Virus record (IMG/VR): IMGVR_UViG_3300020048_000009
Span: 64,001 to 128,000 of that record
Reading direction: 5' to 3' (one strand)
Length of the DNA: 64,000 bases
Source: a virus
Taxonomy: Duplodnaviria; Caudoviricetes
Shown here: positions 7,845-29,081 of the stretch, piece after piece
Numbering within the stretch: the stretch's first letter is position 1
How the letters are laid out: each line of letters starts with the position of its first letter
The notes under the pieces: generated by a model
The model's database searches: none
Told to the model about the DNA's origin: nothing
The model's input: the letters and a program-made list of their open reading frames with translations, nothing else
Made by a program: the position numbers and the translations under genes

Positions 7845-8699
7845 ATGATTAATGAATTAAATACTATACATAAATTATGTGATTGTGGCTGTGGTAAAGA
7901 AGTTTCTATAAATAGAGATACCAAAAAGCCTAATAAAGTTATTAGGGGACATACATCAATAGCGATTAGAAAGAAATTAGCAGAATCGCATACTGGGAAA
8001 AAATTCTCAGAAGAACATAAAACAAATTTAGCACTTTCACATAAATGTAAAGAAACACAACAAAAGCTAAAAGATACCAATATAAAAAAATATGGTGTCG
8101 AAAGCCCAATGCAATCGCCTATTCTTAGAGAGAATCATAAAAAGGCATGTTTAAAAAACCTAGGATATAATACACCACGAGAATCCGCTCTGGTTAAAGA
8201 AAAGCATAATAAAACATGTATAGAGAAGTATGGGGTAGATAATTGGGCTAAATCAATAGATGGTCGCAAATTTGCTAGGGTTAATAGAATAAAGGTAATT
8301 GAAGTTCAGAAACTAAATGGTGAGCCTTTAAGCCCATGTATAGGTATAAAAGAAAGAGAATGCTTAAATGAATTACAACCCCATATTTCATTTAATATCA
8401 TTAGGAACGATCACTCCTTTAAAAAATTAACTGGAAGATTTCCAGATGGTCATATCAAAGAACTTAAATTATTTATACAATTTGATGAGCGGCACCATTT
8501 CATAGATAAAGAAATGTTAATATATAAAGAACAAGATATTCGATGTACTAAAGATTTAGAATCAATACCTGGTTATACGGTTTTTAGAATTTCAGAAAGA
8601 GAATGGTTAGACAATAAACAAAAGGTTATAATAGATTTTAAAAATATATGTAAACAGTGTACATTACCACAAAGCATGTCTGAAAATAATTTTAACTAA
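7845..8699 (+). mobile_element. Putative homing endonuclease (NUMOD3-like + KYGV repeats + PD-(D/E)xK/DUF559-like domain)
   Basis: CDCGCG; SHTGKKFSEEHKTNL; KKYGVESP/EKYGVDNW; FPDGHI..LFIQFDERHH..GYTVFRISEREW; GATAAATA upstream. Confidence 0.7.
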
Positions 8700-18467: not shown

Positions 18468-18809
18468 ATGAGTATTAAGAAACCGAAATTAACTATTATG
18501 CGTACACCAAAAGCGGGTAAAGTATTACCCAAAATTGGGGAGTTCTTTACTGTTAAGAATTTTGAAAATCCGGATAACAATGGATTAGTATTAATTAGAA
18601 TCGATCCTTGTTATATATCTCCAGCAATTGTTGAAGCTGGATGTAGTTGGAATAATTGTGGTGCTCATGAAATTGTTTTTGGTATTCCGCTTGGAGAAGC
18701 ATTTAATAGTGCTCAAACTAAAATCAATGGCGCATGTACATGTCCTATTAAAACTATGGATTTTATAGTTTTGGATATTGAAGAAATTAAAGCAAAAATT
18801 AAAAGTTAA
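18468..18809 (+). CDS. Hypothetical protein
   Basis: Co-oriented ORF. Confidence 0.6.
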   Translation: MSIKKPKLTIMRTPKAGKVLPKIGEFFTVKNFENPDNNGLVLIRIDPCYISPAIVEAGCSWNNCGAHEIVFGIPLGEAFNSAQTKINGACTCPIKTMDFIVLDIEEIKAKIKS

Positions 18810-18810
18810 G

Positions 18811-18840
18811 GTGTATATTGTAGCGAGTATCAAGTATAAT
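18811..18840 (+). promoter_or_regulatory. Promoter opening the RNA island
   Basis: GTGTAT-N18-TATAAT. Confidence 0.75.
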
Positions 18841-18854
18841 TAAAGTATAAATTT

Positions 18855-19330
18855 TGATTCCATCAGGGGAATGAAAAGTGGTTTAAGCCTGATGCGTCTC
18901 GACGGTTTGCTGAATATTGTTAGGGTCCTTTCTTCCTAATAATGTTTATACTGTCGAGGGTACCGATAGGTTACGGAAAATTATTTTCAAAAATATTTCA
19001 TTTTTATTTTTGGAAATGATAAATAAAATAAAATTAAGGATAAAGCAAATGTTTACGAACACATATAGAGGCAATGATAAAGGCAATACAGAACTATGTA
19101 TTACTAATGCCGGGGCTTTATCCAATCTTACAGCAGTAAATTTCCCAGAACGAATAAAGCCCGTAACCCAAGTTTAATTTAAACGGTAAAATGTTTTGGG
19201 TTACTACTAGGAGAGGTTAAGCCTAGTGCGTTCTATAAAATTTACTGTGTCTAATGCTAAACACGAAATTTTGTAGAGGTCCTCAAAAGAAATGAGCAAT
19301 TATTTCTTTAGATTTGATCTGTGACAATTG
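18855..19330 (+). ncRNA. Large structured RNA candidate (about 470 nt) leading the tRNA array
   Basis: At least eight hand-identified helices; see findings. Confidence 0.55.
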
Positions 19331-19393
19331 AATAGAAAACTTTAAATTATTTTTTGGTGGTTTTTATAACTCAAAAAACTACCCAACTTTTAT

Positions 19394-19470
19394 GAGCTCG
19401 TAGAGGAAATGGTTAACTCATGTGGTTTTCATCCACAAGATTGCCGGTTCGAATCCGGTCGGGCTTACCA
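19394..19470 (+). tRNA. trnE: tRNA-Glu(TTC)
   Basis: Cloverleaf; TGTGG-TTTTCAT-CCACA; CCA. Confidence 0.92.
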
Positions 19471-19561
19471 TATAAGCATGACGACTAGACTAGCAATGCT
19501 TTCAGCTTATAGCTAAACTAGTGACACGGCGGAGAGCACGTCGGACAATTTTATAATTTAT

Positions 19562-20220: not shown

Positions 20221-20946
20221 ATGAATACAGTAATTTGTCCAATATGTGGAAAAGAATACAAACAATTAATAGCACAACATATTTTTAAACACGGTTTGAC
20301 TATTGAAGAATTTAAACTTAAATTTCCAGATTTTTATTTAGGTAGTCCGGGTATTGAAAGTACTAGAAAAGAAAAAATGGTACTTCAATATGAAAAAGAT
20401 AATATACGATGTAAACATTGTAATAAATTAATAACATCACCAAATAGAAAACATAGAATCTTTTGTAGTACTTTATGTAAAGCTACTTATTATTCTTTTA
20501 ACAAAGAGCTTGTTCAAACAAAAGGAAAACATTTTAAAAAAATCTGTTGTGCATGTAATAAAGAATATAAAGCCTTTAGAGATAATTCTAAATTTTGTTC
20601 TAATAAATGTCAACAAGAATATATTAATGTTCAAAAAATTAAAGAATGGAAAGACGCCACAGAACAGGGAAAACCTTTTCCCTATAGAAAATGGATAAGA
20701 CATTATCTTTTTAAAAAATATGATAACAAATGCTGTAAATGTGGGTGGAGTAAGATTAATCCTTTTACAGGAAATGTTCCTTTAGAACTTGAACATATTG
20801 ATGGTAATTCAAATAACAATAAAGAAGAAAATTTAGAATTGTTATGTCCCTGTTGTCATGCCTTAACTTCCACATATAAGGGTGCAAATAGAGGTAATGG
20901 AAGATTCTCTAGAAGACAAAGATACCAAGAAGGTAAATCTTATTAA
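20221..20946 (+). mobile_element. HNH homing endonuclease with Zn-finger N-terminus
   Basis: CCKCG...LELEHIDGNSNNNKEENLELLCPCCH; ATAAATA upstream. Confidence 0.88.
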
Positions 20947-21040: not shown

Positions 21041-21115
21041 GTTTAATATGAGCTAATGGTAAGCTTCCAGGTTTAAAGACCCAGAGTATATAGGTTCAAC
21101 TCCTATTATTAGATA
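21041..21115 (+). pseudogene. Degenerate tRNA, anticodon unresolved (TAA or TTA register)
   Basis: D-arm and ATAGG-TTCAACT-CCTAT T-arm intact; anticodon stem mismatched; no CCA. Confidence 0.55.
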
Positions 21116-22417: not shown

Positions 22418-22924
22418 ATGAAAAATAAATGTCATAAATGTAATGTAGATATTCCAAACAGGGTTAAAATAGATAACTGTTGGAAAACAATTAACCATAG
22501 AAAATTTTGTTTAATCTGTTCACCGTGGGGTAAACATAATACTAAAAGCGTGGATCCTTCTAAAAGAACGCTTTCAGAAAAAGAAAGACATTCCTGGAAA
22601 AATTTAACAGATAAACAAAAAACATGTCATAAAACATCACAACATAAGAGAGCCGTTAAGCGTAAGGTTGAACTTATTAATATGCGAGGTGGGAAGTGTG
22701 AAAGATGTGGTTATGATAAATGTATTGATGTATTTCATTTTCATCATATAGATCCATCGTTAAAAACCATGAACATGGGATTAAATTCTCTATGGTGTAA
22801 ATCATGGGAAAAGATTTTACAGGAATTTGAAAATTGTAAAGTATATTGTTCTAATTGCCACATGGAAGTGCATTATGAATTAAAAAATCCTGATAATAAA
22901 CAATGTACTTTAATTTCAAAATAA
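22418..22924 (+). mobile_element. HNH homing endonuclease
   Basis: GGKCERCG...FHFHHIDP...CKVYCSNCHMEVH; ATAAATA upstream. Confidence 0.85.
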
Positions 22925-23555: not shown

Positions 23556-24236
23556 ATGATTAATAAATTAGATGAATCATGGAAGCAAGTAAACGGTTTA
23601 TATAAATGTCCAATATGTAGTAAAGAGTATTCTAAAAAAGGAATTTGTTCGCATATCTTTAGATCACATACAAAAGACGGTAAATATAATTCTTTTAAAG
23701 ATAATAACAGATTATATACTTCATCGTGGAATAAAGGTTTAATAAAAGAAACAGATCTTAGAATCAAGAAATCTGGTGAGAAACTTAAAGAAAGTCTTAA
23801 CTCTGGTAAAGTAATACCACCACAAACAGGAAAACCTATTGCTCCTGAAATAAAAGCTAAAATATCCAATACGATGAAGATTGCTCATAAAGAAGGAAGA
23901 GCGTGGAATATTGGAAAGTCTAGATGGAATAACAAAGCTTCATATCCAGAAGAATTCTTTATGAAGGTTATTGAAAATGAATTTGAGGATAAGAATTATA
24001 TAAGAGAATTTAATGTTGGTATTTATTCTATAGATTTTGCATGGACCGATAAAAAGTTAGCTATAGAAATAGACGGACAACAGCATAAACGATTTGAAGA
24101 ATATAAACAGAGAGATCTTCGGAAAGATGAATGTTTATTAGAGAATGGATGGAAAGTTCTAAGAATTTTATGGATTGATATGTATAAGGATCCACACAAG
24201 TGGATTAAAATTGCTAAAGATTTTATACATAATTAA
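23556..24236 (+). mobile_element. Putative homing endonuclease, DUF559/Vsr-like nuclease with C2H2- and NUMOD-like N-terminus
   Basis: CPICSK..HIFRSH; YSIDFAWTDKKLAIEIDGQQH..RD..L..NGWKVLRI. Confidence 0.82.
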
Positions 24237-24920: not shown

Positions 24921-25457
24921 ATGAGTAAAAAATTAATTGATCGCATCGGTGCTGATAAAATCATTGAAGTCTGCAAATCTGCAAAAACATTTAAAGAAGC
25001 ATGTGAAAAACTTAACTGTGGTTATAGATATTTAATGACAGCAGCCGTTGAATTAAATGTTTTCGATGAGTTAAAGTCTAGATCTAAAGAATTTGCACAT
25101 AAATTTAAAAAGGCTGATGGTTCAAGATTATGGTTGATTAAAACTAATACGGGACAAGGCTTTACATCATACAGAACTGATACTAAAATTTGGTGTGAAG
25201 AACTTTTTAAAGGAAATCATACATCAACCGCTGTTAGAATTAAAACACATTTAATTAATGCTGGGTATAAAGAAGATCATTGTGAATGCTGTGGTATTAA
25301 TGAATGGAACAATAAGCCAATAAGTTTACAATTACATCATATAGATGGAAATTCTAGAAACAATCAGTTAGATAATTTAAAAATTCTTTGTCCTAATTGT
25401 CACGTTCAAACAGATAATTATGGTTCTAAGAATGCTCGAAATAAAGAGCGCGAGTAA
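24921..25457 (+). mobile_element. HNH homing endonuclease
   Basis: CECCG...LQLHHIDGNSRNNQLDNLKILCPNCH. Confidence 0.88.
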
Positions 25458-28989: not shown

Positions 28990-29081
28990 GGAAGTGTGGC
29001 CGAGCCTGGTTTATGGCGGCTGATTACTAATCAGCAGGGGCCTTAAAACCCCCGTAGGTTCAAATCCTATCGCTTCCTCCA
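28990..29081 (+). tRNA. trnS: tRNA-Ser(ACT)
   Basis: GCTGA-TTACTAA-TCAGC; V-arm GGGG/CCCC; U73; followed by terminator. Confidence 0.85.

Follow-up and report, generated by a model that had tools for sequence, protein, structure and literature searches.

Two predicted pistol-type ribozymes, one of them lacking P1, bracket a 42-codon reading frame ahead of a phage tRNA array

The phage record from which this DNA comes is 211,678 bp long, with 29.8% G+C, and encodes a DNA polymerase that shares about 29% identity with the enzymes of T4-like cyanophages and pelagiphages. We analysed one stretch of 64,000 nt from it (the window) and describe here a locus with a small ORF on one side and, on the other, the first gene of a 24-tRNA array (Table 1). 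A putative promoter is followed almost at once by a module with the canonical layout of a pistol ribozyme; then come a phage promoter motif, a Shine-Dalgarno sequence, a 42-codon mini-gene and a second, pistol-type module, and further hairpins occupy the space up to tRNA-Glu. The initial annotation had reported an internal promoter-type motif with GATAAATA (at 19018), the AAGGA and the ORF at the head of the tRNA array. All of these elements are present, and this arrangement is supported, with the ORF kept open in relatives.

Table 1. Features of the locus, with positions in the window.
Feature	Position	Strand	Description
Putative sigma-70-like promoter	18811..18840	+	GTGTAT (18811-16), 18-nt spacer, perfect TATAAT (18835-40)
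Module 1, predicted pistol ribozyme 1	18857..18965	+	complete canonical pistol layout by comparison with the Rfam consensus
Module 1 P1	18857-61/18868-72	+	ATTCC/GGAAT; loop ATCAGG (18862-67) is the 5' pseudoknot strand
Module 1 linker		+	GAAAAG, A-rich (AUAAAG in L104); follows P1
Module 1 P2	18879-82/18962-65	+	TGGT with ACCG; U.G is U-A in L104
Module 1 TTAAG	18883-87	+	core
Module 1 3' pseudoknot strand	18888-93	+	CCTGAT, complementary to ATCAGG
Module 1 GCGT	18894-97	+	core
Module 1 P3	18897-18959	+	long arm of 61 nt, closed by U18897.G18959
Predicted scissile bond 1	G18960^U18961	+	between G18959 and A18962, by analogy with the pistol G-U junction (PMC4604425, PMC6154101)
A/U-rich hairpin	18980..19020	+	16 bp; overlaps the 5' edge of the internal promoter motif; in MFE and centroid structures
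Phage-specific promoter-type motif	19017..19030	+	TGATAAATAAAATA; invariant in four lineages; putative promoter activity
Shine-Dalgarno sequence	19036-40	+	AAGGA, 8 nt upstream of ATG; conserved
42-codon mini-ORF	19049-19177	+	ATG 19049, TAA 19175-77; start conserved
9-bp hairpin	19113..19162	+	GGGCTTTAT/ATAAAGCCC, arms at 19113 and 19154; inside the ORF; 100% paired, invariant
Hairpin with ORF stop codon	19163..19204	+	GTAACCCAA/TTGGGTTAC, arms at 19163 and 19196; abuts ribozyme 2
Module 2, predicted pistol-type ribozyme 2	19206..19284	+	without P1 or linker; matches the descriptor
Module 2 5' pseudoknot strand	19206-11	+	ACTAGG, free single strand, then the single base A19212
Module 2 P2	19213-16/19281-84	+	GAGG with CCTC; 1 nt after the pseudoknot strand
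Module 2 TTAAG	19217-21	+	core
Module 2 3' pseudoknot strand	19222-27	+	CCTAGT, complementary to ACTAGG
Module 2 GCGT	19228-31	+	core
Module 2 P3	19231-19278	+	46-nt arm
Predicted scissile bond 2	G19279^U19280	+	by analogy with the pistol G-U junction
Variable hairpin	19286..19309	+	AAAGAAAT/ATTTCTTT, arms at 19286 and 19302; directly after the 3' strand of P2
Near-invariant stretch	19312..19355	+	sigma-70-like GTGACA (19321-26) and TAAATT (19343-48); 9/12 in the promoter scan
Terminator-like hairpin	19356..19392	+	GGTGGTTTTT/AAAAACTACC, then CAACTTTTAT; from the terminator scan; ends 1 nt before tRNA-Glu
tRNA-Glu(UUC)	19394..19470	+	first of 24 tRNA genes; ARAGORN and Rfam

The relatives used for comparison are assembled contigs, reached through homologues of two neighbouring genes in a large protein collection: L093 (91% identity to the window), L094, which is the same as L095, and L129 (both about 75%), and L096, which covers the 5' part only. 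One further, full-length relative, L104, was added by a metagenome motif scan. The metagenome pattern scan yielded 30 loci, among which L104 and the L110/L111/L112/L124/L125 group are real and the remainder are chance matches. Since blastn of 18700-19500 against 50,697 curated phage records and tblastn of the 433-aa neighbour against the curated phage collection both returned no match, and the polymerase is so distant from its known counterparts, no cultured relative is at hand. Scans of IMG/VR with the 113-aa neighbour, the polymerase and exact strings of the long hairpin and of module 1 found nothing, and a scan of prokaryote genomes gave no match. GroEL loci were dropped as a comparison set because they are not close relatives, and contigs reached through a 334-aa DUF932 neighbour end before the RNA region. 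All four sequencing runs are contigs. Two of them, true metatranscriptome runs (X19 and X20), contain pieces from relatives that span 19096-19241 and 18827-18902, which do not show transcription, and the RNA-library contigs across the locus, a weak kind of evidence, have no informative ends or joints.

The RNA of this region folds strongly. On the + strand, 18845-19393 has a minimum free energy (MFE) of -145.1 kcal/mol, a value that none of 100 dinucleotide shuffles matched (-108.9 +/- 6.1; z -5.9), and the - strand of the same segment gives z -3.2. In an alignment of five homologues (A2), 97.6% of cells are paired, compared with 43-50% when the partners are slid, and 15 pairs are changed on both sides, a number that 0 of 500 shuffles reached. 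The highly paired RNA that the initial annotation had described is real, and its pairing is kept in homologues; all arms of the helices listed there occur where they had been placed. These include CATCAGG/CCTGATG (18861-67/18888-94), CTCGACGG/CTGTCGAG (18898-905/18951-58), which stacks on an inner stem of 14 bp (18911-24/18935-48), CTAGG/CCTAG (19207-11/19223-27) and TCTATAAAATTT/AAATTTTGTAGA (19232-43/19266-77). Most of the two-sided changes sit in the long hairpin 18898-18958, at 11 of its 22 pairs; CTCGACGG/CTGTCGAG, CTTGATAA/TTATCAAG and CTCAATAA/TTATTGAG are examples. The stretches 18835-18897 (in five lineages) and 19196-19243 are invariant. An extent of about 470 nt had been suggested; the conserved region is real, but the block retained by homologues, at 75-91% identity, is longer and runs from about 18811 to 19393, up to the tRNA. 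L093 lacks the gene upstream of it (18468-18809), L094 has another gene in that place, and because the block is kept while this gene varies, we regard the block as an independent conserved unit.

The pistol ribozyme (Weinberg et al. 2015) is Rfam family RF02679, with a gathering cut-off of 34.5 bits. We compared the locus with the defining features of the family described by Harris et al. 2015 (PMC4604425) and with its key positions, a purine at 32, G33, G40, C41 and G42, with the cut at a G-U junction (PMC6154101). Module 1 can be aligned base for base with the Rfam Pistol consensus and its structure line. It shares with the family P1, a 6-bp pseudoknot that links the P1 loop to the junction of the 5' strands of P2 and P3 (invariant in five lineages), the A-rich linker, P2, UUA-R-G and GCGU, a variable P3 closed by a U.G pair, the 2-nt G-U junction and the phage context. 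In the Rfam search this module missed the gathering cut-off and was absent at E <= 10; a search of the whole genome gave 18858-18930, at 11.1 bits, as the only Pistol match in 211 kb. The weak score in the window probably reflects the length of P3, which is 61 and 46 nt in the two modules versus about 21 in the Rfam model, and neither module is reported by Rfam. By its anatomy, module 1 is a pistol, with self-cleavage predicted from the sequence. Its position is close behind the putative promoter at 18811, from which transcription is predicted to start at about 18847, some 10 nt upstream of the ribozyme. GTGTA and GTATAAT are invariant in five lineages despite the differing or missing upstream gene; this promoter was not listed by the consensus scan owing to its weak -35 element.

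Module 2 shares all features of module 1, namely the pseudoknot, P2, UUA-R-G and GCGU, P3 and the G-U junction, except P1 and the linker. The same P1-less layout recurs in three other phage-like lineages (L110/L112/L124/L125, L111 and the IMG/VR contig L127), and L110, L111 and L127 likewise lack P1 and linker. Across the four lineages P2 appears as GAGG/CCTC, CGGG/CCCG and GGGT/ACCC, all compensated; the P3 sequences are unrelated yet paired, and GGT is found in every case. When the Rfam Pistol model was searched, L127 and L111 scored 30.7 and 27.5 bits over model positions 23-68 only, and L110 scored 28.7 bits. These P1-less cores with scores of 27.5-30.7 bits have a short P3; all of them fall below the gathering cut-off, as does module 2 itself, which Rfam does not report in the window. 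L110-L112, L124 and L125 are G+C-rich contigs whose similarity to the window is confined to a 34-nt piece. The pseudoknots of the P1-less relatives are identical because the search pattern had fixed the pseudoknot sequence, an ascertainment effect; a pseudoknot-free pattern, ANNNGGANNNNTTAAGCCNNNTGCGT, found 10 further loci in IMG/VR, none of them with P2, P3 or a complementary pseudoknot. A version of module 2 with P1 shifted to its 3' end was also considered and ruled out, since CCTAGT has no complement in the loop (19294-19301) of the hairpin on that side. Module 2 is a variant of the pistol core that fails one defining feature, P1 with its linker, and it too is predicted to cleave. We found no description of a P1-less pistol form in searchable papers.

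A descriptor consisting of P2, TT-R-AG, N6, GCGT, an abutting P3 of at least 5 bp, GGT, the complementary strand of P2 and an upstream 6-bp pseudoknot partner, searched on both strands of the 211 kb, matched at exactly two sites, modules 1 and 2. On 60 simulated genomes it gave no match, even when the pseudoknot was not required. The pseudoknots of the two modules differ at two pairs, both of which are compensated (AUCAGG/CCUGAU versus ACUAGG/CCUAGU). Within the clade, P1, the pseudoknot and P2 are invariant and so give no support from covariation. Invariant catalytic parts next to a P3 that covaries freely are the pattern that would be expected of a ribozyme core.

Between the two modules, the A/U-rich hairpin has 98% of its cells paired in four lineages, with one-sided changes only. 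The promoter-type motif that it overlaps belongs to a set that recurs in this genome: TGATAAATAAAA occurs 9 times on the + strand versus 0.40 expected and 5 times on the - strand versus 0.24 expected, a total of 14 versus 0.64, or more than 20-fold enrichment. Among the + strand copies, which were the ones examined, all nine are located approximately 10-115 nt before an ORF start, and three of the ORFs preceded in this way are endonuclease genes in the tRNA region. In each of the four lineages with sequence across the mini-ORF, the frame stays open and has 40, 42 or 45 residues. All four of its indels are in frame (-3, +3, +3, +3), in contrast to arbitrary lengths outside the ORF. Substitutions are distributed over the codon positions as 7/9/9, without third-position bias, and 14 of the 18 changed codons are non-synonymous, which suggests that the mini-protein is fast-evolving or is constrained mainly at the RNA level. 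Searches with the 42-aa product gave no family match, and the homologues found were limited to the corresponding mini-ORF of relatives; there is no sign of the remnant of an endonuclease invasion that had been postulated here. Its weak likeness to repeats in a TPR protein and in a PKD/SdrD protein, which rests on repeated short motifs, was judged spurious. The 9-bp hairpin inside the ORF never varies and so contributes no covariation. In the hairpin that holds the stop codon, one two-sided change (C-G to A-U) is seen in L094 and L129; a hairpin also stands upstream of the P1-less module in the other lineages, adjoining it in L110 and not adjoining it in L111 and L127.

Downstream of module 2, the variable hairpin is found in every lineage, with differing sequence and length; it shows 75-92% pairing and three two-sided changes in MAFFT columns. 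The near-invariant stretch that follows does not differ between the window, L093 and L094, and L104 has a similar sequence. The terminator-like hairpin is 100% paired with two one-sided changes, shows a double change from G-C to A-U in L129, and is present as two copies in tandem in L104.

Both modules and the ORF between them are on the + strand of the 212-kb phage record, and we think it fairly probable, from this analysis, that the mini-gene RNA is released from its neighbours and from the tRNA precursor through cuts which two ribozymes make on either side of it in the nascent transcript. During transcription, each ribozyme would fold and cut its own G-U junction (18960^18961 and 19279^19280), so that, by analogy with known pistols, the 5' fragment would end in a 2',3'-cyclic phosphate and the 3' fragment would begin with a 5'-OH. 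The first cut would strip the 5' triphosphate leader, or upstream read-through, so that the RNA of the mini-gene would start with a 5'-OH. The second would detach this RNA from the tRNA precursor and leave it with a 3' end made of the folded ribozyme and a 2',3'-cyclic phosphate. The mini-gene may then have an insulated message to itself, with the tRNA precursor as a separate RNA.

RtcB acts on exactly the kind of ends produced by self-cleaving ribozymes, and this phage encodes an RtcB (160 bits, intact 396-aa frame, G000 156331-157521) as well as two RNA-ligase family proteins; a search with the RNA_lig_T4_1 family gave zero matches here but also in control genomes and is therefore uninformative. 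It is therefore conceivable that the 319-nt RNA 18961-19279 is excised and circularised by the phage RtcB, or that the outer pieces are joined, much as in an intron made of ribozymes and a ligase. As we read the sequence, neither ligation product would rebuild P2, so re-cutting would not occur, and Perreault et al. voiced the same idea for hammerhead arrays, although they sought spliced and circular products and found none (PMC3088659). With 24 tRNA genes in this phage, tRNA repair is the ordinary explanation of a phage RtcB, and since it accounts more simply for the ligases we rate ligation as decidedly unlikely. Moreover, a transcript from the internal promoter motif would carry a 5' triphosphate and could not circularise, and no contig, weak as such evidence is, joins 19279 to 18961. 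Another possibility is that the pistol-like motifs, or at least the P1-less one, are structural folds derived from ribozymes that no longer cut and instead bind protein or stabilise RNA. Module 2 and its relatives do lack P1 and linker and do score below the Rfam cut-off, and disrupting P1 substantially lowered the activity of a tested pistol, in which P1 is important (PMC4604425). Against this, all key core positions are kept, namely the purine and the G of UUAAG, the GCG of GCGU and the G-U junction (PMC6154101), and the core is invariant across lineages in which P2 and P3 have been replaced, which is hard to explain without catalysis; we consider a non-cutting fold unlikely. The compound proposal that the P1-less module is a natural, active minimal pistol and that the ribozyme pair and the phage RtcB excise and circularise, or splice out, the 319-nt small-gene RNA is a long shot.

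ROOL and GOLLD are big phage-borne RNAs with extensive pairing that occur close to tRNA genes, and a position beside tRNA genes, as here, is typical of RNAs of this kind. The region might accordingly be read, as it was in the initial annotation, as one large non-coding RNA or a regulatory leader of the tRNA operon in which the ORF is incidental, and the strong fold and the lack of third-position bias in the ORF agree with that. The Rfam check proposed for ROOL, GOLLD and introns was carried out: in the 64-kb window only tRNAs reach the gathering score, and in 18700-19500 at E <= 10 nothing relevant appears, with no match to ROOL, GOLLD, group I/II introns or other large families. A conserved long-range architecture is also missing, unlike in ROOL and GOLLD, in that no long-range helix is conserved. 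The sole one proposed pairs GGTTACGG (18969) with CCGTAACC (19161). The window has both arms, whereas L093 and L104 lack the GGTTACGG arm and L094 has two copies of it; the two-state switch that had been built on this helix is not conserved. The paired parts are local modules with known counterparts, two of pistol type and the others separate hairpins, and the ORF has the in-frame indels described above. A single large RNA is highly improbable; the region is better explained as a small transcription unit. A different, translational switch can be drawn in which GCUUUAUCC (19115-23) has two alternative partners, namely the ribosome-binding region GGAUAAAGC (19038-46) and AUAAAGCCC (19154-62), the ribozymes being secondary. 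The first of these pairings is in the MFE structure and the second in the centroid, both are 9 bp long with four G-C pairs each, and all three segments are invariant in four lineages. Because they never vary they offer no covariation, they are located in or beside coding sequence, and such a switch would be compatible with cutting by the ribozymes; we give it little credence as the main function.

Cutting of the transcript around the mini-gene by two ribozymes resembles what has been proposed for clustered hammerheads that flank single prophage genes or short blocks of them, where likewise two self-cleaving ribozymes bracket a small gene in a phage transcript (PMC3088659). Perreault et al. 2011 proposed that a long transcript is cut there into single-gene RNAs, and considered circular or spliced products (PMC3088659). 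The present locus differs in that the ribozymes are of the pistol class, the first is behind a putative promoter, the unit heads an array of 24 tRNAs and the phage has its own RtcB. Theta ribozymes, which are minimal HDV-like ribozymes (Kienbeck et al. 2024, PMC10879173), are also small self-cleaving ribozymes that occur among phage tRNA genes and are presumed to help process the tRNA transcript. They belong to a different class, and the theta cut adjoins the tRNA, whereas the cut predicted here is 114 nt before tRNA-Glu, with the promoter-like stretch and a hairpin in between. The pseudoknot-containing hammerhead (Zhan et al. 2024, PMC11300833) has the same connectivity as pistol and module 1. 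This type was ruled out because its core of CUGANGA, GAAA and cleavage after a UH triplet is absent and UUAAG, GCGU and G^U are present instead (PMC11300833). Pistols in phages and ribozyme-flanked genes are already known; what is new here is the recurring P1-less form, of which searchable papers gave no description, together with P3 arms of great length, a pistol so near a putative promoter, and a location just ahead of the tRNA array of an RtcB-encoding phage.

The chemistry of pistol ribozymes is well understood, more so than their biological purpose. This locus provides a compact, conserved test case, with a textbook pistol about 10 nt behind a putative promoter and a stripped-down one that separates a very small gene from the tRNA genes. 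Cleavage by the P1-less form would mean that the minimal pistol has to be redefined, with P1 and linker dispensable, and that standard annotation is missing a class of phage ribozymes, since all the examples described here fall below the Rfam cut-off. Were this form inactive, a ribozyme fold would have been reused for another purpose. Should the doubtful involvement of RtcB prove true, the locus would represent a protein-assisted ribozyme cassette in a phage.

Two elements flanking the first pistol ribozyme vary among related phages. The 113-aa gene just 5' of this block (window 18468-18809) is an indel, being absent from L093, a contig homologous to this block, with the junction at 18468/18790, while its place is taken by an unrelated 79-aa gene in the homologous contigs L094, L095 and L096. 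Immediately 3' of predicted cut site 1, the unit GATAGGTTAC is found in zero, one or two copies, depending on the lineage.

Surroundings of P1-less pistols were also inspected in contigs of separate lineages (see table). In the G+C-rich contigs the ribozyme is set in hairpin-dense stretches that lack ORFs and extend to about 1.1 kb at most, and approximately 150 nt 3' of it are conserved between L110 and L111; this segment matched no Rfam family at E <= 1. In L111 and L127 the P1-less pistol adjoins a small ORF, starting at its stop codon or within a few bases of it, and in L127 the ribosome-binding site of the next gene follows P2 within 10 nt.

The sequence TGATAAATAAAA is a recurrent promoter-type motif, with 14 copies in the genome versus 0.64 expected. 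All nine plus-strand copies examined lie a short way 5' of an ORF start, and the ORFs preceded by them include three free-standing endonuclease genes. Four HNH-type endonuclease genes are scattered between the tRNA genes, two of which carry unusual anticodons in the ARAGORN calls. Elsewhere in its genome, beyond the window, the phage has genes for an RtcB ligase and for two proteins of an RNA-ligase family (PF09414).

Within the 42-codon mini-ORF between the two ribozymes, GCUUUAUCC has two alternative partners, the ribosome-binding region GGAUAAAGC or AUAAAGCCC, and the predictions differ, one partner being chosen in the MFE structure and the other in the centroid. A translational switch of the mini-ORF by this alternative pairing is possible; the three segments are all invariant, so covariation speaks neither for nor against it.

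Between the second ribozyme and tRNA-Glu, an almost invariant stretch carries sigma-70-like hexamers followed by a terminator-like hairpin, which ends 1 nt before tRNA-Glu in the window; in the homologous contig L104, where this part spans 600-741, the hairpin is present as a tandem pair. The tRNA transcript may have its promoter and 5' leader here, or else this may be the terminator of the mini-gene.

Coordinates of the features (G000, whole phage record)
Feature	Position	Source
RtcB and two PF09414 loci	G000 156331-157521, 153587-154765, around 163274-163726	
HNH-type endonuclease genes	window 20221-20946, 22418-22924, 23556-24236, 24921-25457	
tRNA-Phe(AAA)	window 21041-21115	ARAGORN
tRNA-Ser(ACU)	window 28990-29081	ARAGORN
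Hairpin-dense ORF-free regions	L110 6290-7420; L111 4775-5350	
Small ORF with P1-less pistol	L111 5030-5174; L127 10136-10378	
GATAGGTTAC unit	window 18966-18976; L094 around 7892-7915	
GGAUAAAGC	window 19038-19046	
GCUUUAUCC	window 19115-19123	
AUAAAGCCC	window 19154-19162	
Hexamers and terminator-like hairpin	window 19312-19392; L104 600-741	
TGATAAATAAAA copies	window 19017-19030 and 13 other genome sites, e.g. window 7789, 23500, 24865, 26879, 31695
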